The notes under the pieces are model-generated. The model saw only the letters and a list, made by a program, of their open reading frames with translations, was not told where the DNA came from and did not search any database. Shown here in pieces: positions 5,901 to 53,249 of a stretch of DNA of 64,000 bases. Each line of letters starts with the position of its first letter. The stretch's first letter is position 1. The position numbers and the translations under genes are program-made. The stretch is from NCBI GenBank assembly GCA_964512625.1, contig CAZEKG010000002.1, positions 109,393 to 173,392 on the forward strand, given 5' to 3'. Source of the DNA: an uncultured Gammaproteobacteria bacterium. GTDB taxonomy: Bacteria; Patescibacteriota; Patescibacteriia; 2-01-FULL-39-33.

Positions 5901-8900
5901 GATGTTTTATTATGGAGAAGAAAAAGCCAATAATGCGGACTTAGATAGCGCCGATAATGTTTGCTTAATGCTTAATCCGTTTAATTATGATTGGTTTTGG
6001 GATAAGAAAAGCTACAATAATTTAGAGCGGATCGATGTTACTAATAACGATCTATTGAAATATGTTGCCGAGTCAAGCACTTTCGCTTATGGAAATGATG
6101 GTAAAAATGATCCATATCAAACCAGTACGGCGCGTGGCGAAACGATTAGCGACCCGGCTAAATCAACGAAGATTTTAGCTACCTTAGTAAAAACTGGGAA
6201 AGCGGGAATTTGCTATGTGGAAAATGATTTTACCAACCCGATTGTTATGGAAGATCAGTCTTGTAATAAGGGAACGACTCAAAGCCCGAGTCCTTGGAAG
6301 GGTTCGACGGATGCTTGTATAAATGGCGTTATTTCCTTGAGGTTTAGTCGTAATATGGTTAATAGTACGCTAGTTTCCGGTTCTGAAAAGACAGGTACGC
6401 AGGTTATTGATAAACAAACGGTTAATTTTAAGTATTATGAATCTCACCCTAATATTGTAATTCAAAAGTGTAATTCAAATACTGTTACTTCAACCGATAT
6501 AAACGCTTGTACTGATGTGGGAGTTGATTGGAAAACTATTTTATTTAAGTATAGCCATCAAACCATTTCGATTGCCGATATGATGGCCTCTAGTAGTGAG
6601 AATGTAAATGAGTTGCCGGAAGGCTTATCAATTTTGCCTTCGAGCAATCTTGATAAGAACCAGTGGTATCGAGTTATTATTATCGGCGGCCAAAACGGCG
6701 TTAGAGGAGCAAAAATAATTAATAGCAACGAAACTAAAGACGGTGTTTTAAGAGGAACCAATAATTCGCCATTGACGGATATGAACGGCGACGGCGAAGA
6801 TGATTATTATTGGATTTTTAAGACAGCCTCGGATAAATGTCCTATAAATTCGGTAACTGTTTTGCCTTTTTCCAAATTCATGAAATTTGTCTCCGAAACT
6901 CAAACTTATAACGCTTGGCCTCAAGCGGCTAATTGTAATATCTTAAATCCTTTGACTTACAATTGGAACTGGAAAGCTTTGATTGATTTAAATGATGATA
7001 GGTCTGATAATACCGATCCGGGAACCGGCAATGATATCGTTAAAGTATGTTCAGTAAATAATACTACTTGTTCTTCTTATGATAATCCTACCAGCTTCCA
7101 AGTTAATGCGACCGGAGAATCAGAAGGCTTAGTCAATCTTAAGGCTAGAGCTTTAGATACGGCTAAAACAGGGGAAGATTGGACGAGGGATAAATGGGGT
7201 TATAGTGTTCTTCAGGTCGGTTACGGCGGCTTTTATATCAGGAAACATTCTCCGGATTCGACTAAATGCTTAAATCCGGAAATAACCGCTCTTTTCTCTC
7301 TTGATGCTAAGTCTGAGTCTATAAATTTAGGCAGTAATTTCAGCTTATATAAGTGTCAGGGCGGTAATTGCAATACTGAAAAAGAGTTGGCCGAGCTTTC
7401 ACCTTTAGGACTTGGTACGGCTAATGCTAATCCTTTCTTGTCTAATCTTTTAAGAACGGAGCCGAAAGTTTATTTAGAGGCTAGTAGCACTTACCGGGTT
7501 ATCGCTAAAAGCGGCGAGAGCGGCTTGAAAGCTTGGAATGGCAATAGTTTGACCGGCTTGAATTATCGAACTAGCGGAACAGGCAACGGAGAGCAATGCG
7601 ATAAAGATGCCTATCCTTGGAAAGAGTTTAGCGGTTTATGTACTGATAAATGCCTTATTAGTACTTCAACAGCTTTTGCTGATTTATGTTCCTATCAAAA
7701 AGGAAGATTCGCTGAATGTAAATATACAACCAGTACCGCCGCTTATTGCGATAATACCTGTCACGCTTTAGGAAATACTAATACCGGTTCTTGCGGCAAT
7801 GGCAAGCTTGAAGCTGAGGAAGAATGCGATGATGGTAACTTTAAAGACGGCGATGGCTGTTCTTCAAGATGTCTTTTAGGAGGTTCAAGTGATAAATGGG
7901 GTTCAGTTTGCGGTAATGGCAAGCGCGAATACGGCGAATTATGTGATGATGGCAATCGAAGGGGTGGCGATGGCTGTTCTTCGGCTTGCTTAACTGATTC
8001 TCGTAAGATGGGAACGGCGACTAGCTCCCCGGTTTGCGGTAATAGTAGGGTAGAATTCGGAGAGTTATGTGATGATGGTAATAAGATCAGCGGCGATGGC
8101 TGTTCTAATAAATGTTTATTAGAGGGCTCGTCTAATGGCGCTGTTTGCGGCAATAAGGTTATGGAAAACGGCCAAAACGACAGCTATGCTTGGGATTTTA
8201 AAGTTGAAAGCAATGCTCAAGAATGCTTAGGTCCTAATTTAGAAAATAATCCTTGCCCTAATGGTATTTGGCGAGTTAATTTCCCGGATAGTAATAACAT
8301 GGAAGGGACAAAATATAATCAATTCTCAATTAAAGTTTGGCAAAAATCAAGCGTTGATGCTGGTAGTTGTGAAGTGATTGCCCAGGGTTTTTGGAAAACG
8401 ATTTTTAGAAAAGTTAAAGTCGCAGTTTTAAGGCTTTTCGGCCAAACCGCCTCGGCTGCTGATTATTGGTGTCCTTTTATTGAGGAGCAGGCTTTTGGAG
8501 CTAGTGATTTAACTGAGATGAAAAAAGGCAATTATGTTCGTACTTTTGACAATCCGGGAGTCAGCAATGCCGGACAAATAATTGCTTATACAGATGAAGT
8601 CGGCAATTATATTATTAATTTTGCTAGGACTGATGCGGCTTCTTGGCCGGCTAATGATTATAAGATGACTCTCAGTTATACTAGAGACCTGATTAATCAG
8701 GAAATAAATACGGATATAAAATTCGCTATTTCAAGGAATGCTTGTCCGATAAACGATGTAATGGTTAATGTTTGGCCTAAAGGCGAAGAAAGAAAGGATG
8801 ATACTTTCTTCTGTGCCGGAAATGATTGCGGTTCTAAGACTGCCGATCCTTATGATGATGATATGTCAGCTAATTGGACATACAGCAAGAATGGTTACGA

Positions 8901-11900
8901 TCTTAAAGAAGGAGTGGGTTATTTAGGCGGTAACCAGCATCTTTATCGCGCCTGGGCCTTAACTAATAGATATGGTCGGCCAATGGTTGTTCAGGCTAAT
9001 TTTAATTGGGACATGGAACATATTCCTTTTAATACTAAGACGACTAGCTCTGATTTCTCTCTGACAACTTACAATGGTGATAAATGGATTACTTCTGGCG
9101 ATGTTGGCGGACGAGACCTTTTAAATGTTACTGCTTCCGACGTTAATACTTTGGCGAGTACGACAGTAATGATTAGAACTTTCCTTTGTAATAATCCTTG
9201 GCCGACGCCGGCGAAATTCCCTTATATTGATTCTCGAGTGAATTGCGCTAATCCCGCTAATTGTGTTAATACCAACTTTGAGCTTTTTTATTGTCGAGAT
9301 AGCGGCGATAAGGAAACGACGGATGATGATCTTCCGGCCTTAACTCCTGATAACCCGATTGTCGTTCCAGGGGCTTCTGGTTCTGAAATTGTTAAAGAGT
9401 TTATTTTCCCAAGAGCCGATAAGACGACTAGCTCGGATGCAGTTGGTTTAAGAGTTATGAATAATAGCGGTAATGCGCTTGCCGTTTCAAAGATCTATTT
9501 AAGTCCGGCTGAGTGGTATTTTAATCAGTTTGATAAGGCGCGTCAGGGTAAGCCTAAAGGCCTTGTTGTTGATGGCTATCAGGCAGTCGAAGAAGGTAGG
9601 ACGGCTTATGTTAGCGCCGCCGATCTTAATGAGAATTTAGGAAATGCTTTTAATAATATTTATCTTCTTTCTTATAATGATAAAGCTGATCAGGGGACGA
9701 GAAATATTTATTCTCAAATATTAAGCAACCTGACTTTCAATACCGGAGAAGCGGAAAACGGCGGATTACTTGATAGCGCAGGGTCTTGTACTAATAACCC
9801 TGCTTATAAATGCTTTACTGATAAGGATTGTAAGGGATTCGGTTTTTGCGATTCCCCGAAATCGAGGATTACGAGGGATACGAAGAGGTTAGCCGATATT
9901 AGCGATATAAACCTAGGATTGGAAAAATATAAAGCTGTTAAGAGATGCAGTAATGACCATAGTAAAACTTGTTTAAGTAGTTCGGTTTGCGCCGATAACG
10001 GAACTTGCGGTAATTATTATCCTACTTTGACTTCTGGAACTTATGTGGCTAATAATTCTTTAAGTTCTTGGCTTTCTTGGGAAAGTACTTTGGCGGCGGC
10101 TTTAGGTATGATTTTACCGGTTGATCCAAGGAATGAGTTATCTGGCTGTACCGGATCTTATTCTTCGACGACTTGCTGGAGCGAGATTAAGAAAGAAATG
10201 GCTTGCCCTTCCGATTCCTCATTTAATTATTTTTATCATGCGGATAAAAATCCGACTTCTACTATTATGGGTACGGCTAAGATTTTAGGAACTAAATGCG
10301 AATATTGCGTTAATAGTAATGGTGATGATATATGGTCTAATTCAGACTATACTAATTCAATCTTTGGGCCTACTAATTCGGTTATTAGATCTTTCTGTAT
10401 TGATAAGGTAAAAGAAACTTGCGGTAATGGAATTTCCGATATTGCTAATGGTGAAAATTGCCATAATTGCCCGTCTGACTTTAAGGCGGCTTGTAGCAAT
10501 GGGGCGGTTTGTCAAAACTTGGGCACGAATATTAGTCCAAACTGGCAATGTAAGGCTTATGATACAGATGGAGATAATTTTAGCGATGCTATTGATAATT
10601 GTAAGTACGTTAAAAATGGTTGGAATTGGCCGGGGTTATGTATTGCTAATGGCAATGCTTCGCAGTCTTATTTATGTGATCAATTTGATAGTGATCGCGA
10701 CGGAGTTGGCAATGCCTGTGATAACTGTTATCAGGCATTAGGTCCTAATGATAAGCCCGATCCATCTAATAAAGACTCTGATGGCGACGGAATCGGCGAT
10801 GCTTGCGATAACTGCCTTAATAAATGGAATCCGGGACAGGAAGATGATGACGGCGATAAAGTCGGCAATACTTGCGATAATAGTAAGGATGTTAAAAACG
10901 GCGCTTCAGGTAATAATATGACATGTCCTTTGTCTACTCCTCAATCTTATTGCAATCAAAAAGATACTGATGGCGACGGGGTTGGCGATGCCAGCGATAA
11001 TTGTCTTAATAAGAAAAACCCCGATCAAAAGGACTCTGATACTGACGGTTTAGGGGATGTTTGCGATAATTGTCCGACTAAGGCTAATCCTGACCAAAAA
11101 GATGGCGATTTAGACAGCTATGGCGACGCTTGCGATAACTGCCCGACGACTTTCAATCCTAATCAGGATTCGAGGGCTTGTTATAATCCTAATTGCGGCA
11201 ATGGGGCGCAGGATCGCGGAGAGGCTTGTGATTGCGGCACTGACCCGAACAACATTCCTTCCACATGTAATTATATAAATAATTTTAATGTTAATATCTT
11301 AGATATTGAATATAACAAATCCGTACGGGTTTGTATGAATAACTGCCAATTAGATCAAAAATTTGAAGGACCTAAATGTGGGGATGGTATAAAAAATGGT
11401 GCGGAGTCTTGTGATAATGGGTCTCAAAATGGCGTAGTTCCAGCTGCTGGTGGTTATGGTCAGCCAGCCGTAGAGTATTGTACTACTGAGTGTCAAATTG
11501 CTAGTGTAGCCTCTCCAAGGTGTGGCGATGGAACTATTCAGTCGGGGGAGGTTTGTGATACGCCTAATCAAGATGGTTGCGCTCCTGATTGTAAGTCGAA
11601 ATGCGGCAATGGAATTGTGGAAAAAGCCCAAGGAGAAATCTGTGACGATAGTAATGGGAATTCAGGCGATGGTTGCAGTTCTACTTGTAGGGTAGTAGAA
11701 ACTGGCTATAATTGCTTTTATCGTTTTGTTTCCGGAAGATTAGAGAGCGTTTGTCAATCAATTTGTCCGCCAGATAGAGGAGTAGGTAGGTGGACTAGCG
11801 AGGTTTTGAAATATGGCAACAATAATACTTCTAATAATTTTGGTACAATTGGCTCTGTTTATAATAGTTGGCTCCAAGTTCCAAAATGCAAATCTTTTAG

Positions 11901-13104
11901 TGGTATATTTAAAGCTGATGTAAATGTTTCCGGCTCGCCTGGTAGCTTGGCTGTGGTTTTTGTTTCGGATATTTCCGGATCTATGGACGGCAAAACTAAT
12001 GCCTTGTCTCAGGCGATTACTTCTTCATCTGATGAATTATCTAAGAAATTTGGAGCTAATATTGCTCTAGTCCATTTTCATACTAATACTATAGGTGATA
12101 AAGAGTTAATTGGTGATATGTTTTCTGAGAGCTGTTCAGGTAATTATGATTCTAATGGGGTCTGGAGTAATGGTAAGGATACTAAGTATTGTTGCGCTAG
12201 CTCTAATGGTAGGGGTAATTATTTTTGCAACTCTAGCGATTTATTAACGGGTTTTTCTAGTTTAACTAGCTTTATTAGCGATAGGACAAGTAAGATCTAT
12301 GGGAGATATGTCAATGGGGGTACTCCTACGGCTTCCGGATTAGATAGAGCTAGAGCAATTTTAAATACATCTACGGCAGATAAGAAAATAATTATTTTGA
12401 TGTCAGATGGCATGTATGATGGAATTAATCCTTTAAGTACCTCTACTAATATAAAGGCTGGTGGTACTAAAATATATGTAGCGGCATTTACTACTAGTTC
12501 TACTCTCGCTAATATGATGTCTACATGGTCAAGTAATAATAATAGTTCTTGCGGGAGTGGTTATTGCTATTATAGTGGTAATGTTACTGATTTATATGAA
12601 AATATAACATCTAATATTCAGTCGGAATTGGATTCTTACTCGGTAACTATTTTTAATAATAATACTTATTATTATGGAATAAGTCCCTATACTTATAATC
12701 AATCAAAGTATTCCTGGACGGACGGTTATAGCTCTAAAGTTTCAATTCCTAATACAAGCAATAACACTCCTTCAGGCGTAACTTTATCTGCTTTTACTGG
12801 TTTTTGTGCTCCTTCTAATGGCACAGGTGATTATGTTGGTAGAAGTATAACCGTAAAAACGACTAACCCGATTTCTGCTGGAACTAGCTGGAAGGTTAAT
12901 ATCAGTAATGTAACCATGGAGTATTGTCCTCTTGATCCAGTTGGCTATTCTTCTGATATTAATAATCCGACGCTTGGATTATCTCAATCGAACTCTCAAG
13001 TCGCCGGAGCTTATGAGGAAAATGACAATCTATATCAAAGATTCATTGCTACGATAGCTAATAGTTGGAAATTCCTTTTTTCATCAATCATTAATCTTTT
13101 TTAA
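2947..13104 (+). CDS. Giant (3385 aa) multidomain cell-surface adhesin-like protein. It has a Sec signal peptide and a VirB2/TrbC-pilin-like membrane hairpin. Its modules are EGF-like Cys-rich segments, Myxococcus-type cysteine-rich repeats, thrombospondin type-3 Ca-binding repeats, and a vWA domain with a MIDAS motif.
   Basis: The signal peptide is MRLKKSSQNKLLIILTVLVLFLSFGSAVFA|QT. The hairpin (nt ~3076-3306) is LGGADLKSVIKGIVNVFFSFLGVIAVLILLYGGFVWMTAAGDESKVEKAKKTIIAAVIGLVIIFSAFAIVSFV. Cys-rich repeats of the form CGNGxxExGExCDDGNxxxGDGCSxxC occur 3-4 times at nt ~7792-8160 and again at ~11194-11695. Seven TSP3 repeats (DxDxDGxGDxCDNCxxxxNPxQxD) lie at nt ~10561-11170. The vWA domain (LAVVFVSDISGSMDG ... 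SGLDRARAIL ... KKIIILMSDGMYDG) lies at nt ~11944-12500. A single uninterrupted 10.2-kb ORF. Confidence 0.7.
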   Translation: MRLKKSSQNKLLIILTVLVLFLSFGSAVFAQTQANVDLTNAQMGLGGADLKSVIKGIVNVFFSFLGVIAVLILLYGGFVWMTAAGDESKVEKAKKTIIAAVIGLVIIFSAFAIVSFVFRALNVATGIPGTEPCSNIGEVTSCSTSDNCSGTRYCQASGYWGACLKTDPTCPGDSFYSNQFSYILGFSLAGSGWNKNLGRNFSGTVAVPQSANLFIYGYAHDRENIISEMSLWGSLSSSSEAKLAQFNNLNSVKQLIGSKEYNVVSKASTTWNTSGYAVGDIITLKIKVSTGAFASKNIKAKVYASHCFNGIKDADEKNVDCGGSCSACDGDSCFVATNSTCSGDNCLSGICGDNCKCASLPIIDYISPAKDVNGDSNPYRSETLDDDLPNGAPGNIITIWGRSFGSATGTVIFKDKQSGQQFTSSIAPCKSNNWNNNQLTVLIPQSITNTLNVVDESGVTSTTLNYEVFIETANHLLSEAGKGFQVNKIERPGICNMDPDSGVYPTTTTINGIKFPISGTQNVLWKIKNGSLFETITSTLAKSWTAASVIDTALENKNGVSSVRIYNGSQYSNYFKFLLSSGGLNAPCGLDPRACDQDVTTCNTGLACDKASCTCQKSNTSCSVGEKQVCDNGGCAGDQTCRPDGVFGNCIQRDSKCIPKTDKVSIAGQTFYSWAFLTNPGGNGQSCGYDYWDVCDIKGCGSGLACDTTGTSSPYNINKTPCTCWTKVCEPATVSSTCKAIGKCEARSVCNSQGTAWGECVKVDYTCNPFPEIEPARQAFYSWSFMAFKNDPFNAPEVIEDCNRTITCRDGSKLPSPTPWYNPVVGATDEGWSTTTHPNLVGNVLNPKACVNAIISARFSLPMKLSSFAGNIKIMQMDEASSTWSEIPITVSNYQLLSGGTQLNLNHANFSPATRYKVVLRQGIASDAGVKIKKYNDVIGSDKRDCNVGGINDAAYCWNFVTRAATDPDLLCKEGCPTCSPDPTQMFYYGEEKANNADLDSADNVCLMLNPFNYDWFWDKKSYNNLERIDVTNNDLLKYVAESSTFAYGNDGKNDPYQTSTARGETISDPAKSTKILATLVKTGKAGICYVENDFTNPIVMEDQSCNKGTTQSPSPWKGSTDACINGVISLRFSRNMVNSTLVSGSEKTGTQVIDKQTVNFKYYESHPNIVIQKCNSNTVTSTDINACTDVGVDWKTILFKYSHQTISIADMMASSSENVNELPEGLSILPSSNLDKNQWYRVIIIGGQNGVRGAKIINSNETKDGVLRGTNNSPLTDMNGDGEDDYYWIFKTASDKCPINSVTVLPFSKFMKFVSETQTYNAWPQAANCNILNPLTYNWNWKALIDLNDDRSDNTDPGTGNDIVKVCSVNNTTCSSYDNPTSFQVNATGESEGLVNLKARALDTAKTGEDWTRDKWGYSVLQVGYGGFYIRKHSPDSTKCLNPEITALFSLDAKSESINLGSNFSLYKCQGGNCNTEKELAELSPLGLGTANANPFLSNLLRTEPKVYLEASSTYRVIAKSGESGLKAWNGNSLTGLNYRTSGTGNGEQCDKDAYPWKEFSGLCTDKCLISTSTAFADLCSYQKGRFAECKYTTSTAAYCDNTCHALGNTNTGSCGNGKLEAEEECDDGNFKDGDGCSSRCLLGGSSDKWGSVCGNGKREYGELCDDGNRRGGDGCSSACLTDSRKMGTATSSPVCGNSRVEFGELCDDGNKISGDGCSNKCLLEGSSNGAVCGNKVMENGQNDSYAWDFKVESNAQECLGPNLENNPCPNGIWRVNFPDSNNMEGTKYNQFSIKVWQKSSVDAGSCEVIAQGFWKTIFRKVKVAVLRLFGQTASAADYWCPFIEEQAFGASDLTEMKKGNYVRTFDNPGVSNAGQIIAYTDEVGNYIINFARTDAASWPANDYKMTLSYTRDLINQEINTDIKFAISRNACPINDVMVNVWPKGEERKDDTFFCAGNDCGSKTADPYDDDMSANWTYSKNGYDLKEGVGYLGGNQHLYRAWALTNRYGRPMVVQANFNWDMEHIPFNTKTTSSDFSLTTYNGDKWITSGDVGGRDLLNVTASDVNTLASTTVMIRTFLCNNPWPTPAKFPYIDSRVNCANPANCVNTNFELFYCRDSGDKETTDDDLPALTPDNPIVVPGASGSEIVKEFIFPRADKTTSSDAVGLRVMNNSGNALAVSKIYLSPAEWYFNQFDKARQGKPKGLVVDGYQAVEEGRTAYVSAADLNENLGNAFNNIYLLSYNDKADQGTRNIYSQILSNLTFNTGEAENGGLLDSAGSCTNNPAYKCFTDKDCKGFGFCDSPKSRITRDTKRLADISDINLGLEKYKAVKRCSNDHSKTCLSSSVCADNGTCGNYYPTLTSGTYVANNSLSSWLSWESTLAAALGMILPVDPRNELSGCTGSYSSTTCWSEIKKEMACPSDSSFNYFYHADKNPTSTIMGTAKILGTKCEYCVNSNGDDIWSNSDYTNSIFGPTNSVIRSFCIDKVKETCGNGISDIANGENCHNCPSDFKAACSNGAVCQNLGTNISPNWQCKAYDTDGDNFSDAIDNCKYVKNGWNWPGLCIANGNASQSYLCDQFDSDRDGVGNACDNCYQALGPNDKPDPSNKDSDGDGIGDACDNCLNKWNPGQEDDDGDKVGNTCDNSKDVKNGASGNNMTCPLSTPQSYCNQKDTDGDGVGDASDNCLNKKNPDQKDSDTDGLGDVCDNCPTKANPDQKDGDLDSYGDACDNCPTTFNPNQDSRACYNPNCGNGAQDRGEACDCGTDPNNIPSTCNYINNFNVNILDIEYNKSVRVCMNNCQLDQKFEGPKCGDGIKNGAESCDNGSQNGVVPAAGGYGQPAVEYCTTECQIASVASPRCGDGTIQSGEVCDTPNQDGCAPDCKSKCGNGIVEKAQGEICDDSNGNSGDGCSSTCRVVETGYNCFYRFVSGRLESVCQSICPPDRGVGRWTSEVLKYGNNNTSNNFGTIGSVYNSWLQVPKCKSFSGIFKADVNVSGSPGSLAVVFVSDISGSMDGKTNALSQAITSSSDELSKKFGANIALVHFHTNTIGDKELIGDMFSESCSGNYDSNGVWSNGKDTKYCCASSNGRGNYFCNSSDLLTGFSSLTSFISDRTSKIYGRYVNGGTPTASGLDRARAILNTSTADKKIIILMSDGMYDGINPLSTSTNIKAGGTKIYVAAFTTSSTLANMMSTWSSNNNSSCGSGYCYYSGNVTDLYENITSNIQSELDSYSVTIFNNNTYYYGISPYTYNQSKYSWTDGYSSKVSIPNTSNNTPSGVTLSAFTGFCAPSNGTGDYVGRSITVKTTNPISAGTSWKVNISNVTMEYCPLDPVGYSSDINNPTLGLSQSNSQVAGAYEENDNLYQRFIATIANSWKFLFSSIINLF
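3050..3320 (+). repeat. ~270-bp direct repeat. The coding sequence for the pilin-like hairpin domain is duplicated between the two giant genes; the partner copy is at nt 1-270.
   Basis: By eye, nt 1-270 and ~3050-3320 align at roughly 75% nucleotide identity. Examples: ggcggagccgatcttaag vs ggcggggcagatctgaaa; tatggcggttttatttggatgacggctgg vs tatggcggttttgtctggatgacggctgc; tttgctattgtttcttttgtt vs ttcgctattgtttctttcgtc. The encoded protein segments match. Confidence 0.6.
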
Positions 13105-28639: not shown

Positions 28640-30775
28640 ATGCCCCGCAAACAACCATTAGAAAAAATTAGGAATATAGGCATTATCGCCCATATCGATG
28701 CTGGTAAAACGACTGTTTCCGAACGCGTTCTTTTTTATACCGGTAAGAAGCATAAGATCGGCGAAGTCCATGAAGGTGAAGCTACTATGGATTGGATGGA
28801 ACAGGAAAGAGAAAGAGGTATTACCATCACTTCTGCGGCTACGACTTGTACTTGGAAAAATGCTGATTGGTTGGGTGGCGGCGAAATCCAAATAAATTTA
28901 ATTGATACTCCGGGTCACGTTGATTTTACAGCTGAAGTAGAACGTTCTCTTCGAGTCCTCGACGGCGGCGTTATTGTTTTTGACGGCGTAGCCGGCGTTG
29001 AACCTCAATCGGAAACAGTTTGGAGACAATCTGAAAAATATCATGTGCCTAAGATCGGCTTCGTCAATAAGATGGATAGAATGGGAGCGGATTTTTATAA
29101 GGACTTAGATTCTATTCATGAAAGATTGACTTCTCATGCTCATCCAATCCAACTTCCAGTCGGAGCGGCTGAGACTTTCAGAGGTATTATTGATCTTCTT
29201 GAGATGAAGGCGGAAATTTATCTTGATGATCTTGGAACAAAGTGGGAGATTACTGATGTTCCGGAAGATGAAATAGAAAGAGCGAAAAAATACCGAGCTG
29301 AGTTAGTTGAGGCGATTGTTGAAAATGATGAAGCTTTAATGGATAGATACTTGGCAGGTGAAGAGATCTCTATTATTGATTTAAAAAAGACTTTAAGAAA
29401 GGCAGTTATCGCTAATAAGATTGTGCCTATTATTTGTGGCAGTGCTCTAAAGAATAAAGGCGTCCAATTCTTGCTTGATGCTGTATCTGAGTATTTGCCT
29501 TCACCTTTAGATGTTCTACCTCCAGTAGCTCATGATGTTGATGATGAGACTAAAGAGATCATGGTTAAAGTTACTGATGATGCTCCTATGGCCGGTTTAG
29601 CTTTTAAGATTGCTACGGACCCCTTTGTCGGTAAATTGGTTTTCTTTAGAGTTTATAGAGGTGTTTTAAAGTCAGGTTCTTATATCTTAAATAACTCCAA
29701 TGGAAATAAGGAAAGAATCGGAAGAATTCTCAGGATGCATTCCAATTCTCGAGAGGAAATAGATGAGGTTTACGCCGGAGAAATTGCTGCGTTAGTCGGT
29801 TTTAGGGATGTAACTACCGGAGATACGCTTTCTGATCCTAATACTCCTATATTGTTAGAGAAGATCGTTTTCCCTGAGCCAGTTATTGATATCGCTGTTG
29901 AGCCAAAGACTAAAGCTGATCAAGAAAAAATGGGCTTAGCTTTATCGAAGTTGGCTGAAGAAGATCCTACTTTTAGAGTTAAGACTGATGAAGAAAGTGG
30001 CCAAACTATTATTTCCGGTATGGGTGAGCTTCACCTGGATATTATCGTCGATAGAATGAGACGGGAATTTAAAGTCGAAGCTAATATCGGCGCTCCTCAG
30101 GTTGCCTATCGAGAAACTATTCGTAAGACAGCAGAAGCTGAAGGTAAGTATGTTAGACAATCAGGCGGTCGAGGTCAATATGGCCATTGCTGGATTAGAA
30201 TCGAACCGCTGGAGCCTGGCAAAGGCTTTGAATTCGCCGAAGAAATCAAGGGCGGCGCTATTCCTCGAGAATATATCAAGCCGATTGAAAAAGGTATTAA
30301 AGAGGCTTTGACTAGGGGTGTAGTAGCCGGATATTCTTTGATTGATGTTAAGGCAACTGTTTATGATGGATCATACCATGACGTCGATTCATCTGAAGCA
30401 GCTTTTAAAATCGCCGGTTCCTTGGCTTTGCAGGAAGCTGTTAAGAAAGCAGCTCCAGTTATTCTTGAGCCGATTATGAAAGTCGAAGTTACGACCCCTG
30501 AGCAGTTCATGGGTGACGTTATTGGTGATCTTAACTCTCGAAGAGCTTTGATTAATAAAATGGAAGATAGAGGTTCTGGCGCGGCTTTAACTAAGGTTAT
30601 TACTGCTAATGTTCCTCTTTCTGAGATGTTCGGCTATGCGACTCAATTACGATCTATGACTCAGGGTCGAGCTAATTACAGCATGGAATTCTTGCATTAC
30701 CTTGATGTGCCGAAGAATGTGGAAGCCCAAATCGTAGAAGGTAGAAAGGGTACGGAAAAGAGAATCCAGTCTTAA
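28640..30775 (+). CDS. fusA: Elongation factor G
   Basis: The G-domain motifs are [24 protein letters not shown] and NKMDR, followed by the domains II-V signatures. Confidence 0.9.
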
Positions 30776-30796
30776 TTTCTATATTTTAGAACATAA

Positions 30797-30835
30797 AAGA
30801 ACAGCAACTGAAATCGGTTGCTGTTCTTTATTTAA
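30797..30835 (+). terminator. Rho-independent terminator after fusA
   Basis: The hairpin is AAGAACAGCAAC-TGAAATCG-GTTGCTGTTCTT, followed by a T-rich run. Confidence 0.6.
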
Positions 30836-30838
30836 ATT

Positions 30839-30866
30839 AAAAAGGCGGCAACTTGTAGTTGCCGCC
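30839..30866 (-). terminator. Rho-independent terminator (minus strand) for the convergent porin-like gene.
   Basis: The hairpin GGCGGCAACT-TGT-AGTTGCCGCC is followed, on the minus strand, by TTTTT (the complement of the A-run at 30839-30843). Confidence 0.55.
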
Positions 30867-30887
30867 CGTACTCAGTCCCGTTCTTCT

Positions 30888-31916
30888 TTAGAATTTGAAC
30901 TGAGCTTTTGCTAAAAGCCGGTTGTCCTCCGGCCCATCAACTACGGTCTCGTAGTCGAGGGTAAGGGAGCACCGGTCTTTTTTATCCATAAGACGGACGC
31001 CGTTGGTCCAGTAGACGCGCTTGGCGTCGCTAGTTTGGATTTCAACGGTTTCCGTCTTGAACTGACCGCTCTCTCGGTCGAACTTCGTGTTAGTCTCCTC
31101 ATAGGTCTTGGAGATGTCCCCAAGGTAGTCTACCTGGGAGTGAAGCTCGAGCCAAGGAGTGGCCCGGTAGGCGACCTGGACATAGCCGCCGAACTGGTCG
31201 CTAACTTCGATGCTCTCGTATCTTGTATAGCAGAGAGCGCCCATTAAGTTCCAGTGATTGTCTGGCTGCCACGCAGTGCTCACGCCGAAGCGTTGGAAAT
31301 CTTGGCAGAGCTGCGTGTAGCCGGCGATGTTTCCTGATCCTGGTTTGCCCTTTTCCCCAAATTGCTGCCTCAGCATGGCAGACAATTCAATCCTGTCGAA
31401 GGAGTGATCGTCGTCGAAGGCCAGACCGGAACGACCCGTTACATCGAAAACCAGGCTGACGCTTTCCGATAGCTGTCCCTCGACTTGCGCGCCGTAGGCA
31501 TAGCAGGGGAAGGTCATACTACTCGGATAAGCGACAGTTCTTAAGCTGTAAGCGTCAGGAGTGCTGTTGCCTGCAGCCAGGAATATTCTCCCCGCTTTCA
31601 GGCTCCAGTTATCATTTACCTTATACTTCACCCAGACTTCTCGAAGCCAATTAGAGTCGATTTGTCCGTCGTTGAACGGCAGATTGACTTGGGTGGAGGC
31701 CTCCCATCGCTCACTGCTCCAATCAGCTTTCAATCGGAGATTGTTCCATTGGAACTCGTCCGATGAAGTGGTGGTTTCCGCGTAGCTGGCTTGAGTCCAG
31801 CCACTTATTTTCAAAGTCGGTTCCTGACCGACCTTAACATCTTGCAGTTCGGCCGGCGCCGAGTGGGTGAAGCCGAAAAAGGTGGCGAGGACGATGGTGA
31901 CAAAAAACTTCTTCAT
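30888..31916 (-). CDS. Secreted beta-barrel outer-membrane-protein-like (porin-like) protein. Its GC content is markedly higher than the surrounding genome.
   Basis: It has a signal peptide (MKKFFVTIVLATFFGFTHSAPA) and alternating amphipathic beta-strand patterns (WSLKAGRIFLAAG, YVQVAYRATPWLELHS, SLTLDYETVV). The C-terminus is aromatic (KAQFKF), which is typical of OMP barrels. GC is roughly 50-55% against a high-30s background. Confidence 0.45.
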   Translation of the reverse strand: MKKFFVTIVLATFFGFTHSAPAELQDVKVGQEPTLKISGWTQASYAETTTSSDEFQWNNLRLKADWSSERWEASTQVNLPFNDGQIDSNWLREVWVKYKVNDNWSLKAGRIFLAAGNSTPDAYSLRTVAYPSSMTFPCYAYGAQVEGQLSESVSLVFDVTGRSGLAFDDDHSFDRIELSAMLRQQFGEKGKPGSGNIAGYTQLCQDFQRFGVSTAWQPDNHWNLMGALCYTRYESIEVSDQFGGYVQVAYRATPWLELHSQVDYLGDISKTYEETNTKFDRESGQFKTETVEIQTSDAKRVYWTNGVRLMDKKDRCSLTLDYETVVDGPEDNRLLAKAQFKF

Positions 31917-33160
31917 GAGAAACTCCTTTTCTGCTTTTGGCAGTCAAGGAAAGGCTTCTTCACAAGAAGTTTTAGTTCCTCGACTGCCGGCGGACCTCTT
32001 GGACTCGCATTTTTGAACCAACGCAGTTCAGATGGAATCCAAAATCTCTCTTCAAAAACCACTCTTACGAACCTCCAGTCCGGTTGAACCGAATGTTCGA
32101 ATTCGATGACGGGGTGGTCGCTGCCGACCGATCCTTTCTTTGTATTTCCGTCGTCATCTTTTTTGTCAACTGAAACTAAAGTCGTAACCACAGCGGCATT
32201 CGACTTCAGTATTACCAGTAGTCTAGCGATACTTGGTGTCAGGCTAATTAGCGAAATAGTGAAACAAATCAGCGCGGGTCTAGTAACCCGTCCGCCAGAT
32301 TGCCTAACTCTTTCCATGGCCTGATCGAACCTGACTAGAGGTTCTTCGGCTTGGAGCCAAAGAGCGGCTTCCTCTTCAGAGGTAAGCCAGAAGTTGCCAC
32401 TTCTCTTCTTTATATACTGACTTCTCAGCTTATAGTACCTTTTATTTTTGGCACCTTTTTCACTGATGGTTAGTATGCCTATGGGCCCGAAGAGGCTGGC
32501 GAGTATCAATCTAGACCAGCCTAGAAGGAACTCCTCTCGAACTTTTTCACCCTTAAACCTCTTGTTTAGAAGTAGGATGAAGATGCTTGGCGCTGTCATG
32601 AGCATGTACCATTTCAGCAACCAAAGAAAAAAGTTGAGCAGATCTTTCGATGATAGAGATATCTGCTCCCCATTTTCCTTTAGTACTTGGTCTTGGGCCT
32701 CTATGATACTGCTATTGAATCGCATTCCTGCTTCCTGTCGACGAGCGGCTTCATCGGTAGAATAAAGTTGCTTATAGTACTTTGGCGCCTCTTCGGCAAC
32801 TTTCCAGTTCCTAACGAAACATTCTCTAGCGAGATCGATAACTACTCGATCACTTGACTTTCCTGTTAGTATGACTGGAAGATTTTGCTTTAGAATAACC
32901 AAGCGATATTGAATGCGTTGCGCCTCTAGCGGTGTTAGAGTATTTGCCTCAGATTTTTTCTGGGCTTCCAGTAGTAGGGAGTTCATTTGTTCCTGCGCAG
33001 CTAGGCATTCTTGGCTACTGCAAAAAGATTTCTCTTTTTGCCATTTTTGACTTACCCAACTCCAGTCTGCGAAGACTAGAATAGTAACCACTATCGCCAC
33101 CCAACTCAGAATTACCTGAGCGAGAGGCTTTGGCTGGTCATAACTTTGGTAGTATGACAT
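31913..33160 (-). CDS. Hypothetical multi-pass membrane protein. It is GC-rich and overlaps the porin-like gene by 4 nt, so the two are co-transcribed.
   Basis: An N-terminal TM helix (VILSWVAIVVTILVF) and internal TM helices are present, with no recognisable catalytic motif. It is upstream in a 2-gene minus-strand operon and has elevated GC. Confidence 0.4.
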   Translation of the reverse strand: MSYYQSYDQPKPLAQVILSWVAIVVTILVFADWSWVSQKWQKEKSFCSSQECLAAQEQMNSLLLEAQKKSEANTLTPLEAQRIQYRLVILKQNLPVILTGKSSDRVVIDLARECFVRNWKVAEEAPKYYKQLYSTDEAARRQEAGMRFNSSIIEAQDQVLKENGEQISLSSKDLLNFFLWLLKWYMLMTAPSIFILLLNKRFKGEKVREEFLLGWSRLILASLFGPIGILTISEKGAKNKRYYKLRSQYIKKRSGNFWLTSEEEAALWLQAEEPLVRFDQAMERVRQSGGRVTRPALICFTISLISLTPSIARLLVILKSNAAVVTTLVSVDKKDDDGNTKKGSVGSDHPVIEFEHSVQPDWRFVRVVFEERFWIPSELRWFKNASPRGPPAVEELKLLVKKPFLDCQKQKRSFS

Positions 33161-46549: not shown

Positions 46550-46939
46550 CTAGGAGATTATTATCCTCGGCCTCTCTGGGCCAAGGTCGGCGACGTGGTT
46601 GATAAATTTGCCAATTTTCTCTTCCTCAATGCCTGACTGTCGGAGCAGCTCCTCGATAGTTGTTTTGTCCGCCGGTGCCGACGGCAAGGAGTAGTGCTCA
46701 GGTGTTAATCCTTTGTACCCCTTAAGACTCCCGCCATGCCTTGGCCAGAACACCGTTTTGACTTCTCCGCTTGCCAGTAGAGAACTGACGAACGCGTTTA
46801 TCGCCTCCTGATGTTCGGGGTACATACAGCAAGGACAAATTTCACTCAGCTCTCCTCTAAAAAGAGATGCAAGCATCGCGACATTACCTTGTTGAAGGAT
46901 GACGAATGTGTGTTCACCATGTCGAGTTATCTCTTTCAC
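46550..46939 (-). CDS. Hypothetical small (129 aa) Cys-containing protein with a CPCC motif. It is GC-rich relative to the genome and transcribed divergently from the radical SAM gene.
   Basis: The sequence is MKEITRHGEHTFVILQQGNVAMLASLFRGELSEICPCCMYPEHQEA... . It has no signal peptide or TM helix, and GC is about 50%. It shares a 205-nt AT-rich divergent promoter region with the 47145 gene. Confidence 0.4.
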   Translation of the reverse strand: MKEITRHGEHTFVILQQGNVAMLASLFRGELSEICPCCMYPEHQEAINAFVSSLLASGEVKTVFWPRHGGSLKGYKGLTPEHYSLPSAPADKTTIEELLRQSGIEEEKIGKFINHVADLGPERPRIIIS

Positions 46940-47144: not shown

Positions 47145-48227
47145 ATGAAGCCCAACAATCTTGAAAGTGTCAGAATATTAAGTGTAGAGCAAGAAGAACG
47201 AGAAGCAAATTATTTGATTGATTATCTTTATGGCTTGTATCCTGAGCAGGATGGTGTTTTTACTAATGAACAATATCAAAATGCTCATCAGGCTATCATG
47301 GATTCTTTTTTATATACTGATGCGAAAGTATATTTGACTCGCCAATGTAATGGCGAGTGCCCATTCTGTCTGACTGATATGCGTCCAACAACAAGGGAGG
47401 TTGAGGATCAGGAATTCCTTGAGAAGTTTAAATCTAATATTGATGAATATTATAATAAACTAGGCCGAAAGATTTTGTTTACTGGAGGTGAACCTACTAT
47501 CAACCCCAAGAGATTATTGGGTTGCTTGGAGGTGCTAAAGGATTATGATATGGATTTGGTTGTCTTATACACAAACGGCACAAAATTATCAGAAGAGATA
47601 GAATATAAAGGAGTTAGTAAGCCATTACTGGATCATTTAAGGGATTGCGGTCTGAGGAATATTAATCTTTCCGTTCATGATTATGACGCAGAAAGAAGAA
47701 CGGAGCTTTCTCATGAAATTGGCAAAATGGATACGGAAGCGCTCATTAAAGATATTATTGAATCTGGAATTAATTTAAGGTTGAATTGTACATTAATGAA
47801 GGACTTTATTGGTGATAAGGAAGCAATAGTAAAGTATATTGAATGGGCAAATAAGAATGGCGTAAGAGATATATATTTTAGAGATTTGTTTGAATTTGTT
47901 AAGAGAGATAAAAGCACATTAAGGCAAACACCCAGCAGCATGCAAAAATTAAAATTTACTGACGACCAAAGGATTGATTTTTGGAAGTTGATTGAAAGTA
48001 TGGACGAAGAAGATGGTTTTAAGCTTGAGCAACAAATGTTTAGACATAAAGATTGGGGTAGTACTTTTGTATTTACTTATACACCGACTAAATCTCAAGT
48101 TTCTTTTGGCCATTTAAATATAGGAGGAGAGAATGCCGAAGAGGATACTTATTACGCAATTCATCCAGATGGGATAAGAACTAGAAATATGAACGTGGCA
48201 GAAAATACTGTTGAGGAGAGTGAATAG
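47145..48227 (+). CDS. Radical SAM enzyme with a single 4Fe-4S cluster, of the viperin/MoaA-like subclass. It has a ~65-aa N-terminal extension and no C-terminal auxiliary Cys cluster.
   Basis: The sequence LTRQCNGECPFC (CxxxCxxC) resembles viperin FTRQCNYKCGFC and MoaA TDRCNLRCTYC. The motifs ILFTGGEPT, LYTNGTKL and INLSVHDYDAERR follow the TIM-barrel core pattern of that subfamily. After residue ~206 there are no further Cys residues, which rules out a MoaA-type second cluster or a SPASM domain. Confidence 0.6.
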   Translation: MKPNNLESVRILSVEQEEREANYLIDYLYGLYPEQDGVFTNEQYQNAHQAIMDSFLYTDAKVYLTRQCNGECPFCLTDMRPTTREVEDQEFLEKFKSNIDEYYNKLGRKILFTGGEPTINPKRLLGCLEVLKDYDMDLVVLYTNGTKLSEEIEYKGVSKPLLDHLRDCGLRNINLSVHDYDAERRTELSHEIGKMDTEALIKDIIESGINLRLNCTLMKDFIGDKEAIVKYIEWANKNGVRDIYFRDLFEFVKRDKSTLRQTPSSMQKLKFTDDQRIDFWKLIESMDEEDGFKLEQQMFRHKDWGSTFVFTYTPTKSQVSFGHLNIGGENAEEDTYYAIHPDGIRTRNMNVAENTVEESE

Positions 48228-50452: not shown

Positions 50453-51019
50453 ATGACTTATTTAACTCAAGGTTTTATCTTAAAAAAACTTCATTTTGGT
50501 GAATACGACCGGCAGTATGTAATCTATACTCGAGACAAAGGGAAAATTACTGCGGTCGCCAAGGGAGTCAAGAAAATAAATTCTAAACTTAATCCTCATT
50601 TAAGCCGTTTTATGATGGTTGATTTTATGTTGGCTGAGGGGGTTATTTTTAATCGGATTGCTTCCGCTTCGATAGCTAAGAGATTTTCTTCATTTGAAAA
50701 AGATTGGGAGAAAAATATTTTAGCCCAGTATTTTCTTGAGGTGGTTGATCTTTTAGTTAAGGGACAATTAACGGATGAGGGTATCTTTAAAATCATGGAT
50801 GAATTTTTTACGGCGCTAGAAAGTTGTAATGAAAAGAAAGAAAAATTGGTTTGCCTTAATATTTTTCTGTATGAGCTATTGAAGTCTTTAGGTTATCAGC
50901 CGAAATTAGACGCTAAAAATCAAAAAGTCCTCTTTTCTTTTTTAAATAGCCAAATAACTGAAACAGCTGAGAGTAAGGTTTACAGCTTCGCCTCAGCTTT
51001 TTCTATATTTGACAATTAG
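50453..51019 (+). CDS. recO: DNA repair protein RecO (short form, OB-fold N-terminus; no zinc finger)
   Basis: It begins MTYLTQGFILKKLHFGEYDRQYVIYTRDKGKITAVAKGVKK, which matches the RecO N-terminal OB domain. It is 188 aa. Confidence 0.6.
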   Translation: MTYLTQGFILKKLHFGEYDRQYVIYTRDKGKITAVAKGVKKINSKLNPHLSRFMMVDFMLAEGVIFNRIASASIAKRFSSFEKDWEKNILAQYFLEVVDLLVKGQLTDEGIFKIMDEFFTALESCNEKKEKLVCLNIFLYELLKSLGYQPKLDAKNQKVLFSFLNSQITETAESKVYSFASAFSIFDN

Positions 51020-51092
51020 CTCATTTTAGGTTATGATGAGCTGTTGTGTTCTTTCAAGGTTAACCGGCTAAAGGCCGAGACAAGGGGGATCT

Positions 51093-51614
51093 ATGACGGT
51101 TTCAGATAGAGCAGCGTTAAGCGTAATTCCCATGAACAGGTCGGCCGTCAAGCGGTTTTTACCTCATCGCAACGCCATGTTGCTTATTGATGAGGCTGAG
51201 ATCTATCCCGGTCAGGAGATTGTCGGGTCAAGGATTGAGGCCCATAAGTTTCTTTCCCCAAGCTCCTTGCATTTCGACGGTCATTTTCCGGGGTTTTCGA
51301 TCTTTCCGGGCATGTTGACGGCCGAAGGCCTGGCGCAAGCCAGCGCCTTGTTATACGCCTATCTAAAAGACGGCGAGTTTGAGGATATGATCGTCGTTTT
51401 GAGTGAGGTAAGGAAGATGAAATTACTTTGCCCTGTTCGTCCTGGTGATACGCTTCATTTTCGGGCCGAGATTATTATGGCTGACGGCCCGAAATGCGCT
51501 TGCAAGGTCCGGGCCTACATTCTTACCTTAAGGAAGGGTGGTAAGTTTCGAGAGATAACCGTCGCCAAGGGCGAGATCGAAGGCATGGCCATTGCCAAAG
51601 AAAAATTGGCCTAA
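51093..51614 (+). CDS. fabZ: FabZ/FabA-like hot-dog-fold 3-hydroxyacyl-ACP dehydratase. It is GC-rich relative to the genome.
   Basis: The motifs are LPHRNAMLLIDEA, HFDGHFPGFSIFPGMLTAEGLAQA (the catalytic His and Glu are in FabZ positions) and PVRPGD. GC is about 50%. Confidence 0.7.
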   Translation: MTVSDRAALSVIPMNRSAVKRFLPHRNAMLLIDEAEIYPGQEIVGSRIEAHKFLSPSSLHFDGHFPGFSIFPGMLTAEGLAQASALLYAYLKDGEFEDMIVVLSEVRKMKLLCPVRPGDTLHFRAEIIMADGPKCACKVRAYILTLRKGGKFREITVAKGEIEGMAIAKEKLA

Positions 51615-51640
51615 CCCCGTTAAAAGCGGGGTTTTTATTT
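51613..51640 (+). terminator. Rho-independent terminator after the FabZ-like gene
   Basis: The hairpin AACCCCG-TTAAAAG-CGGGGTT is followed by TTTATTTTGTTT. Confidence 0.5.
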
Positions 51641-51794
51641 TGTTTAAAAACTTTATCGCTTTTAAAATCGTATTATTATATATAATTAAGCTAAAATAGG
51701 CTCTAGACGGGTTAGGATCAGCTATCTTTTTTAACTTGTCATTTCCACTGTTTTTAGTTATAATTAAGCCAATCGAAATCATATAAAGTAACTT

Positions 51795-53249
51795 ATGAAA
51801 AGAATATCTATTGCAGAAACGGCTAATAAGGCAGGGGAGGAGGTAACTGTTTGCGGCTGGGTTCACACAAGACGCGATCATGGCAAGCTGATTTTTATCG
51901 ATTTAAGGGATCGAAGTGGTTTGATTCAGGTTGTTTTTATTCCCTCGAATAAAGAGGCTCATGAATTAGCCCAGAAATTCCGTTCCGAATATGTCGTTAA
52001 GATTACTGGTCAAATTAATGAAAGGCCGGCTAATATGATTAATGATAAATTGGCGACCGGTAAAGTCGAGATGTTAGCGACTCGAGTTGAGATTTTAAAC
52101 GAGGCAAAAACGCCGCCTTTTGAGATTGATCAAGATAGCAAGGAAATCAATGAAGAATTGCGTTTGAAATATCGATATCTCGATCTTAGGACTTTGCGAA
52201 TGACCGATAATCTAGTTATGCGGTCGAAGGTTAATAAGTTTTTTAGGGATTATCTTGAAAAACAGGACTTTTTAGAAATTGAAACGCCGATCTTAACTAA
52301 GGGAACGCCGGAAGGCGCGCGAGAGTTCTTAGTTCCGTCCCGCATGTGGCCGGGCAAGTTTTATGTCTTACCGCAATCACCTCAGCAATTCAAGCAATTA
52401 TTGATGGTTTCCGGAGCGGAAAAATATTTTCAAATTGCTCGTTGCTTTAGAGATGAAGATACTCGCGGCGATCGCCAAGCTGAGTTTACTCAACTAGATA
52501 TTGAAATGAGTTTTATCGAACAGGAAGATATTTTTAATCTTATCGAGCCGATGATGATTGAGTTGGTTGAAAAGCTTTATCCGAATAAAAAGATTACTAC
52601 TAAGCCTTTTCCTCGATTGACTTACGCCGAGTGTATGGAAAAGTATAATTCCGATAAGCCGGATTTAAGGGTTAATAAGGAAGATCCTGATGAGTTGGCT
52701 TTTATGTGGCTAATTGATCCTCCGATGTTTAAATATTCTGAAGGCGAGAAAAAGCTGGTGGCTAGCCATCATCCTTTTACCATGCCTAATCCCGAAGATA
52801 TGGAAAAATATCCTGAAGAGCCGAAGAAATGGCGGGCTTTAGGGTATGACTTGGTTTTAAACGGTTTTGAAGTGGCCGGAGGCTCGATTCGTATTCATCT
52901 TCGCGATATCCAACAAAGAGTTTTCGAGCTTTTAGGCGTTGGTGAAAATGAAATTAAAACCCGTTTCGGACATATGTTAGAGGCTTTTGAATACGGCGCT
53001 CCGCCTCATGGGGGAATTGCTCCAGGCATAGATCGCTTGATGGCGGTTTTACAGAACGAACCGAATATCCGAGAGGTTATTGTCTTCCCGAAGACGGGGG
53101 ATAGCCGTGACTTAATGATGGATGCGCCTAATTATACTAGTCTAAAGGCTTTAAATGACGCTAATATCCAAATCGCGGATAAGGTTATCACTAAGGCTAA
53201 AAAAGAAGGTGTCGATTTATTCGGCGAGCAAACCGAGACAGCGGATTAA
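51795..53249 (+). CDS. aspS: Aspartyl-tRNA synthetase. It is 484 aa and lacks the bacterial GAD insertion domain.
   Basis: It has an N-terminal OB anticodon-binding domain (VCGWVHTRRDHGKLIFIDLRDRSGLIQVV), class II motif 2 (FQIARCFRDEDTRGDRQAEFTQLDIEMSF) and motif 3 (GGSIRIH ... HGGIAPGIDRL). Confidence 0.8.
   Translation: MKRISIAETANKAGEEVTVCGWVHTRRDHGKLIFIDLRDRSGLIQVVFIPSNKEAHELAQKFRSEYVVKITGQINERPANMINDKLATGKVEMLATRVEILNEAKTPPFEIDQDSKEINEELRLKYRYLDLRTLRMTDNLVMRSKVNKFFRDYLEKQDFLEIETPILTKGTPEGAREFLVPSRMWPGKFYVLPQSPQQFKQLLMVSGAEKYFQIARCFRDEDTRGDRQAEFTQLDIEMSFIEQEDIFNLIEPMMIELVEKLYPNKKITTKPFPRLTYAECMEKYNSDKPDLRVNKEDPDELAFMWLIDPPMFKYSEGEKKLVASHHPFTMPNPEDMEKYPEEPKKWRALGYDLVLNGFEVAGGSIRIHLRDIQQRVFELLGVGENEIKTRFGHMLEAFEYGAPPHGGIAPGIDRLMAVLQNEPNIREVIVFPKTGDSRDLMMDAPNYTSLKALNDANIQIADKVITKAKKEGVDLFGEQTETAD

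Follow-up and report, generated by a model that had tools for sequence, protein, structure and literature searches.

Why does a bacterium of a kind that usually lacks fatty-acid synthesis carry, alone between two core genes, a gene for a dehydratase of the FabZ type? The question is raised by a 64,000-nucleotide stretch of contig CAZEKG010000002.1 (assembly GCA_964512625.1), called here the window, in which a 173-aa hot-dog protein is encoded between recO and aspS. Our reading, to which we assign a probability of about 0.6, is that this gene is an accessory cassette laterally inserted in a Buchananbacteria-like chromosome, and that its product is a FabZ-fold enzyme, likely obtained from a relative of higher GC (guanine plus cytosine) content within the Candidate Phyla Radiation (CPR, or Patescibacteria), and that this enzyme probably acts on scavenged acyl chains. 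The fold of the protein, its catalytic dyad, the deviant composition of its gene, the insertion, the solitary context and the existence of related CPR genes are established; the substrate, the carrier, the donor and the physiological role are inferred. The enzyme family is a textbook one, partial sets of homologues of type II fatty-acid synthesis (FAS-II) have already been reported in Parcubacteria, and there is no sign of new chemistry or of a new kind of system. CPR bacteria are, however, thought to build their membranes from scavenged lipids, and a mobile, solitary FabZ-type enzyme is a concrete candidate for acyl remodelling outside a synthase; the locus also illustrates how single genes are gained in tiny genomes, as GC-rich one-gene transcription units placed between core genes at recurrent intergenic hotspots.

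A foreign one-gene unit between recO and aspS

In six relatives (L002, L003, L007, L015, L021 and L022; L and P numbers are our handles for loci and proteins), recO and aspS are separated by a gap of only 85-129 bp, so that the approximately 700 bp found in the window represent an insertion. Alignment of the sequences upstream of aspS reveals a promoter block of the form cTTGC/TTG...TATAAT conserved in 15 related loci; since in the window the foreign segment stands to the left of this block, the inserted piece extends from about 51020 to about 51730, roughly 700 bp. It is a self-contained one-gene unit, laterally inserted. A profile of the FabZ-like group described below, run against the open reading frames (ORFs) of 80 aspS loci from GTDB genomes, found no member, the sole match being an ordinary FabZ encoded elsewhere in L062. 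The proposal of horizontal acquisition, made in the initial annotation from the sequence alone, is supported by the short gap in relatives and by the absence of the gene family from these 80 loci. Both junctions recur, base for base, in a 1,965-bp Logan contig (L001, run SRR30164240) that is identical to the window through recO, the FabZ-like gene and aspS, which argues against a chimeric join; L001 was assembled separately, but possibly from the same reads as the metagenome-assembled genome (MAG) to which the window belongs.

The gene is clearly foreign in composition. Its GC fraction is 0.502, as compared to 0.393 in the window, and its GC at third codon positions (GC3) reaches 0.58, whereas 60 ORFs of at least 100 aa average 0.371 with a standard deviation of 0.063, which gives a z of about 3.3. 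Only three of these 60 ORFs, the FabZ-like gene among them, lie more than 2 standard deviations above the mean, and only 1.3% of 522-nt windows reach the GC of this gene. The comparison with other genes gives the same picture, as GC3 is 0.32-0.42 in recO, ruvX, map, adk, aspS and the HD gene. The unameliorated GC suggests a recent arrival.

Judged from its genes, the window is part of a Candidatus Buchananbacteria-like (CPR/Patescibacteria) genome. Its AspS is 75-88% identical to those of MAGs named Candidatus Buchananbacteria or Patescibacteria group, the order map-ruvX-recO-aspS-HD-DUF5671 is common to the window and these MAGs, and the gene set is typical of CPR (the str/S10/spc ribosomal block, secY, DUF5671, a 3,385-aa surface-type ORF, NrdD with its activase, and comEC). 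Five syntenic GTDB representative MAGs with AspS 58-79% identical (L009, L011, L015, L016 and L017) carry the label 'uncultured Gammaproteobacteria bacterium' and are probably mislabelled. Bacteria of the CPR lack complete fatty-acid synthesis (PMC5220378, PMC7242380, PMC12455944), so that the characterization of this genome type in the initial annotation stands, given the 88% identity of AspS to Buchananbacteria and the synteny. Genome surveys have found fatty-acid and lipid synthesis in CPR to be incomplete, and lipids to be apparently recycled from other cells (PMC5220378, PMC7242380); acpP and a lysophospholipase, both acquired horizontally, have been reported in Patescibacteria (PMC12455944). 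Some Parcubacteria (Nealsonbacteria) are reported to have near-complete sets of FAS-II homologues (PMC7242380), and a FabZ homologue in the CPR superphylum is therefore not unprecedented. Our search of the literature for FabZ in connection with CPR or Patescibacteria brought up nothing specific.

Within the window the gene is solitary, as had been stated from the outset. No FAS-II or acyl carrier protein (ACP) domain was found in 39 window ORFs scanned with Pfam, a set that did not include the 3,385-aa ORF, the ribosomal-protein block, secY, adk, map and aspS. The scanned ORFs and the ORF map of the 64 kb likewise contain no acpP, fabD/H/F/G/I, accABCD or lpxA/C/D.

The features of the insert and its flanks are as follows (all on the plus strand).

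50453-51019, +: recO, native left neighbour, GC 0.335 (Pfam RecO_N and RecO_C)
51009-51037, +: promoter-like site TTGACA-17 nt-TATGAT, 11/12 matches (pattern match only), overlapping the final codons of recO and its stop
51082-51089, +: Shine-Dalgarno-like AAGGGGGA, ending 4 nt 5' of the ATG at 51093 (read from the sequence)
51093-51614, +: coding sequence of the FabZ-like hot-dog protein, 173 aa, GC 0.502, GC3 0.58
51282-51284 and 51324-51326, +: codons of the catalytic His64 and Glu78, respectively
aa 23-33, 60-75 and 114-119 of the protein: motifs LPHRNAMLLID, HFDGHFPGFSIFPGML and PVRPGD, respectively
51613-51643, +: strong intrinsic terminator, stem-loop AACCCCGTTAAAAGCGGGGTT followed by a T-run
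51673-51694, +: AT-rich segment of 22 nt repeating the aspS -10 region, 82% identical to 51751-51772
51736-51764, +: native, promoter-like site of aspS, TTGTCA-17 nt-TATAAT, the right-hand limit of the inserted segment
51795-53249, +: aspS, native right neighbour, 88% identical to a Candidatus Buchananbacteria MAG, anchoring the conserved downstream synteny

The range 51020-51650, to which attention had originally been drawn, thus holds the 5' leader, the coding sequence and the terminator, and the gene does stand directly after recO, with aspS beginning at 51795. The position of the TTGACA-17-TATGAT site would suit transcription of the FabZ-like gene. Promoter-like sites as a class are not enriched in this region (3 as compared to 2.8 expected from shuffling), so such sites argue through their position, and the one at 51009-51037 also through its score of 11/12, rather than through enrichment. 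The terminator, also predicted from the beginning, has a stem at 51613-51633 with 9 pairs, 5 of them G-C, and a loop of 3; the T-run tail 3' of the stem is TTTATTTT / TTTATTTTGT. The 5' leader has no Rfam match, and the only Rfam matches in the whole window are two tRNAs. Met14 (in-frame codon at 51132) was considered as an alternative start and rejected, as it has no ribosome-binding site (RBS) upstream. An antisense ORF at 51528-51881 (117 aa), overlapping the end of the coding sequence and the promoter and start of aspS, was taken as spurious without a family scan. The repeat at 51673-51694 may be a scar, the residue of an aspS promoter from a donor or a duplication, or nothing more than chance; being short, AT-rich and present in two copies, it is weak evidence.

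The same place has received other genes in other genomes. The recO-aspS gap holds different cargo in L010, L012, L013, L014 and L016, mostly GC-richer than the host locus (e.g., 0.52-0.57 vs 0.38-0.44). Among the cargo are carbamoyltransferase-like genes (by Pfam in L010 and L012, by similarity in L014) and ORFs without Pfam matches. Some relatives have gyrB instead of recO facing aspS; there too the gap varies in length, between 290 bp and 2.2 kb, and holds cargo. The varied cargo at one place indicates that insertions recur upstream of the aspS promoter in this lineage. The cargo segments are located as follows.

L010:3361-6001, L012:2257-3858, L013:4052-6001, L014:4343-6001 and L016:1343-3293: cargo of the recO-aspS gap
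L006:3838-6001 and L008:5241-6001: further cargo upstream of aspS

The downstream side of aspS is a conserved series of genes (HD, DUF5671, tRNA_edit, ScpA, ScpB and Peptidase_S11). The FabZ-like insert resembles phage 'morons' and small genomic islets in being a one-gene unit with a promoter-like site, a GC-rich terminator and deviant GC, located at a variable site between conserved genes. It differs from them in lying outside any prophage, in lacking a PHROG or PADLOC match as well as an integrase or repeats, and in having no close relative in IMG/VR.

An isolated protein of the FabZ fold

The window protein is a FabZ-fold hot-dog protein of the dehydratase type, and an isolated, divergent member of a well-known family. 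The FabA-like family of Pfam (PF07977) matches aa 23-129 with 52.3 bits, against a gathering cut-off of 23, and the MaoC/PhaJ family (PF01575) falls short of its threshold (18.1 bits vs 27). A precomputed Pfam annotation also lists the ApeI-like family PF22818, whereas our direct Pfam scan returned only the FabA-like and the weak MaoC match. Sequence matches in the Protein Data Bank (PDB) are all FabZ, at about 54 bits, and the His and Glu align to the catalytic dyad of FabZ from H. pylori and P. aeruginosa. An AlphaFold2 model built from 87 homologues has a mean predicted local distance difference test score (pLDDT) of 90.8 and a predicted template-modelling score of 0.87. When it was compared with the PDB by Foldseek, the top 50 matches were all FabZ, with target-normalised template-modelling scores of 0.83-0.90, E-values down to 1.4e-12 and identities of 24-32%. 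His64 and Glu78 are invariant across 230 aligned homologues. The original description of a hot-dog protein with three FabZ motifs and the catalytic His and Glu thus holds, and assignment to a FabZ-like dehydratase agrees with Pfam, the PDB sequence search and the structural model.

The NCBIfam models refine this assignment. The best matches are the FabZ equivalogs, yet both are below cut-off: NF000582 gives 74.8 bits as compared to the required 113, and TIGR01750 gives 70.9 as compared to 155.15, while a bona fide FabZ, P0159, scores 145.8 bits on NF000582. FabA models (TIGR01749 / NF003509) give 13.3 bits against a cut-off of 238.15, and AmcE gives a weak 35 bits against 140. With such scores the name 'FabZ-like' is apt and 'FabZ' is not, nor is filing under the equivalog justified. 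In comparison with FabZ proper (NF000582 / TIGR01750; PDB 3d6x, 1u1z, 2gll and 6n3p), the protein shares the hot-dog fold, the His of GHFPG, the Glu of E..AQ, the LPHR...LL.D and PV.PGD motifs and a similar size. It departs from FabZ in its scores, in the low identity to the solved structures and in four near-invariant family residues that are substituted, namely P28A, P69S, V74M and F111L; the consensus Pro28, Pro69, Val74 and Phe111 are each kept in 93-95% of other homologues. The hairpin preceding the last strand is also longer than in FabZ. P69S and V74M, which lie beside the catalytic Glu, and F111L might change the substrate tunnel, which is speculation from the sequence. The setting is also unlike that of FabZ, as the gene adjoins no fab, lpx or acp gene, has a foreign GC, is absent from sister genomes and belongs to a lineage reported to lack complete FAS-II.

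A HMMER search run exhaustively over 1.84 billion cluster representatives, standing for about 15 billion proteins, returned the window protein alone at E <1e-30, the next best match having 79 bits, and no relative of more than 44% identity was found in this set. A word-indexed homologue search had given only the protein itself and one match of 33%; as the exhaustive scan is equally empty, the isolation is real and not an artefact of sensitivity. Scans of IMG/VR and of JGI metagenomes with the five-protein profile of the CPR group found no closer relatives; apart from L084, which was known already, all they gave were generic FabZ genes. PADLOC and PHROGs assigned no family of defence or phage proteins to the window protein, to its CPR relatives, to their 242-aa partner protein or to the other two islets of the window. 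Many of the best remote matches are tandem double FabZ domains within one polypeptide of 300-340 aa (P0003, P0004, P0005, P0009 and others); one example, a Verrucomicrobiota protein annotated as FabZ, scores 279 bits over its two domains.

Solitary FabZ-like genes in CPR and the probable source of the cassette

Genes of a similar kind exist in related CPR contigs. We define a group of solitary CPR FabZ-like proteins that consists of P0015, P0154, P0007, P0019, P0021, P0014 and P0153. The gene for P0015 (188 aa, 33% identical to the window protein) immediately precedes aspS in L083/L084, a Buchananbacteria-like contig whose AspS shares 84% identity with that of the window and whose aspS is followed by the same HD, DUF5671, tRNA_edit, ScpA, ScpB and Peptidase_S11 genes; the GC of the P0015 gene, 0.485, matches that of the host contig, 0.47-0.51. 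Relatives of P0015 at 37-40% identity are P0007 (L086/87), P0019 (L088/89) and P0021 (L085), which adjoin gyrB genes 83-91% identical to that of L083. Neither these four nor P0153 have a FAS gene as a neighbour. P0014/P0153 (L092) are solitary as well, next to a PEP-utilising enzyme and a UDP-GlcNAc 2-epimerase, as read from the translations without a domain scan. In three CPR contexts the gene immediately upstream of the FabZ-like gene codes for a CxxxCxxC protein of 242-254 aa, 65-70% identical between contigs, which has no homologue in the window.

L083:7153-7881, L086:1670-2434 and L088:3-575: CxxxCxxC protein, radical-SAM-like, without Pfam, PADLOC or PHROG match

On NF000582, P0015, P0007, P0019 and P0021 score 64-84 bits, similar to the 74.8 of the window protein and unlike the 146 of a true FabZ. 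A five-member profile searched against 5.8 billion clusters added one further member, P0154, after which scores drop from at least 234 to 106 bits, the level of ordinary FabZs. Val74 of the PGVL motif is kept in 212 of 230 single-domain homologues, and Phe or Met at this position occur only in the seven proteins of the group and in the window protein. The likeness extends to Met29, to the solitary context, to a similar length with a C-terminal extension and, for most members, to the lack of Pro69; P0015 shares with the window protein the place upstream of aspS and the synteny. The window protein is nonetheless only about 33% identical to the group, and lacks K52Y, F61V/M and the longer insert before the last hairpin; the pairing of three members with the CxxxCxxC protein also has no counterpart in the window. 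We consider membership of the window protein in the CPR group somewhat better than an even bet. The members themselves are 37-40% identical to each other, as compared to 83-91% for the neighbouring gyrB and 65-70% for the 242-aa protein. Such low identity beside conserved neighbours implies that the cassette either diverges very fast or has been replaced repeatedly.

Several observations weigh against the account of a mobile CPR cassette. In neighbour-joining bootstraps P0021 falls within the sister group of the window protein in 49% of the replicates and P0014 in 47%, which speaks for the link, but an exclusive CPR clade with the five members is recovered in only 27%. A leave-one-out profile ranks it 11th of 269, with 104.9 bits as compared to at least 257 for members, and it keeps the canonical K52 and F61 that other group members have lost. 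The best BLASTP match is P0011 (34%, 88.6 bits), from a non-CPR ketosynthase/ACP cluster. No donor-like sequence above 44% identity exists in the databases, in spite of a GC that suggests recent arrival; a poorly sampled, higher-GC relative with a fast-diverging copy would explain the recent-looking GC and the donorless databases together. At the insert itself there is no integrase, transposase, other mobility gene or convincing target-site repeat, and sliding identity along aspS against relatives gave no recombination tract that would indicate co-transfer. The window, finally, is 64 kb of a contig of 277 kb, so that ACP and other fab genes may exist elsewhere.

The last point bears on the view that this is a displaced housekeeping FabZ, serving a FAS-II pathway whose genes, all or nearly all of them, lie in other parts of the genome. 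That view has for it that the fold and dyad are those of FabZ, that some Parcubacteria (Nealsonbacteria) are reported to possess near-complete FAS-II homologue sets (PMC7242380), and that the window covers only about a quarter of its contig. We nevertheless find it improbable. Both equivalog scores are too low (74.8 vs 113 and 70.9 vs 155.15), the near-invariant P28, P69, V74 and F111 are replaced, the gene is absent at the same locus in every relative examined, and a GC3 of 3.3 standard deviations above the genome does not suit a long-resident core gene; nor was any fab or ACP gene found among the scanned ORFs of the 64-kb window. An activity other than that of FabZ, such as an acyl-thioesterase, a FabA/FabN-like isomerase, or a cyclizing or decarboxylating enzyme like AmcE, would be in line with the weak AmcE (35 vs 140 bits) and MaoC (18 vs 27 bits) matches, with the V74M, P69S and F111L substitutions beside the active site, and with the longer hairpin before the last strand. 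It is distinctly improbable, however, in view of a His/Glu dyad and GHFPG and PG.L..E..AQ motifs of the dehydratase type, of only 13 bits on FabA models, and of the 50 best structural matches, which are FabZ dehydratases in 50 cases out of 50. An origin of the whole locus in faulty assembly or binning, by a chimeric join of a foreign fragment, or its status as a decaying non-functional remnant, would be suggested by the derivation from a MAG, by the abrupt jump in GC, and by a protein that forms a singleton cluster, found on one NCBI contig and one Logan contig. This we regard as highly improbable: the separately assembled Logan contig spans recO, the FabZ-like gene and aspS with identical junctions, the foreign fragment corresponds to exactly one transcription unit (promoter-like site, RBS and terminator), no catalytic or core residue is missing from the intact ORF, its model has a pLDDT of 90.8, and two further GC-rich single-unit islets of the same pattern are present in the window.

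The choice of donor is where the alternative has more substance. The gene could have been captured directly from a non-CPR bacterium with FAS-II or with polyketide or aryl-polyene genes, e.g., the host, in which case the likeness at residue 74 would be convergent. In L090, P0011 sits between a PP-binding protein and the ketosynthase, with a short-chain dehydrogenase/reductase (SDR) also adjoining, and the precomputed Pfam matches include PF22818, the family of ApeI-like enzymes; the retention of K52 and F61 and the low bootstrap support for the CPR clade point the same way. The likeness to ApeI/ApeP-like dehydratases (PF22818 and PF22817, from aryl-polyene clusters with ketosynthase and ACP) does not extend to the surroundings, since the scanned ORFs near the window gene include no ketosynthase, ACP, reductase or other cluster gene. 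A recent capture from ordinary bacteria would not be expected to leave the protein without a homologue above 44% in 1.84 billion cluster representatives. Phe/Met74 is restricted to proteins in CPR contexts, one of which (P0015) holds the same position upstream of aspS, and the GC of 0.50 fits higher-GC sister lineages such as L083 (0.47-0.51). Direct capture outside CPR is therefore unlikely, and the source is probably another CPR lineage with a small solitary FabZ-like subfamily, and not necessarily a FAS-II-bearing host; in this the present account refines the earlier idea of a solitary, horizontally acquired enzyme that could act on host-derived chains or in a non-FAS pathway.

The events are best pictured as follows. 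A unit made of promoter, RBS, one gene and terminator was inserted laterally at a place of variable content that immediately precedes the conserved promoter of aspS. The likeliest source of this unit is another CPR lineage, a higher-GC relative rather than a host with FAS-II, and the cassette most likely belongs to a small group of fast-diverging, solitary FabZ-like genes in circulation between CPR lineages related to each other. The likeliest chemistry is the reversible dehydration of (3R)-hydroxyacyl thioesters, presumably ACP- or CoA/pantetheine-linked, to trans-2-enoyl thioesters. The enzyme would probably modify scavenged or partly processed acyl chains rather than take part in de novo elongation; as CPR generally lack a complete FAS-II, acyl-chain remodelling is the most economical role. 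A bolder version of this account, which at present seems quite unlikely, makes the FabZ-like cassettes a lineage-restricted, fast-diverging host-interaction factor under diversifying pressure, swapped at the aspS hotspot and processing host-derived 3-hydroxyacyl or enoyl chains. On that version, the substrates may be, for example, breakdown products of lipid A or phospholipids, and the enzyme may have no part in any fatty-acid synthase; the members would have diverged to 33-40% identity next to a gyrB of 91% and a 242-aa partner of 70%.

Other islets and neighbouring genes in the window

Two more GC-rich islets are found in the window, located as follows.

30888-31916, -: first ORF of the second islet (30650-33160), 342-aa product, GC 0.53, GC3 0.65
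31913-33160, -: second ORF of the second islet, 415-aa product, GC 0.45
46550-46939, -: third islet, a single gene of 129 aa, GC 0.497, GC3 0.53

The second islet lies on the strand opposite to fusA and tuf, in the space between these two genes, and carries a GC-rich terminator hairpin of its own. The N-terminus of its 342-aa product resembles a signal peptide, and the product has a weak match of 22.6 bits to Porin_O_P, an unexpected family in a CPR cell, which lacks an outer membrane; Pfam, PADLOC and PHROGs gave no match for the 415-aa product. The third islet, between secY and a radical-SAM gene, is followed at its 3' side by a long perfect hairpin terminator and likewise has no match in Pfam, PADLOC or PHROGs. 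No convincing flanking repeats common to the three islets were found. The presence of three of them in 64 kb suggests a recurrent mode of gene gain.

The radical-SAM gene, at 47145-48227, is of native low GC (0.349) and codes for a 360-aa protein; placed between secY and adk, it interrupts the normally contiguous spc-secY-adk-map block. At the left end of the window, 116-2929 codes for a protein of 937 aa that combines a T4SS-pilin-like N-terminus with a Big_5 domain, and the 3,385-aa ORF occupies 2947-13104 and is followed by two proteins with TSP3 repeats; together these genes are probably a giant module for the cell surface or for adhesion, of the kind that is characteristic of episymbiotic CPR.

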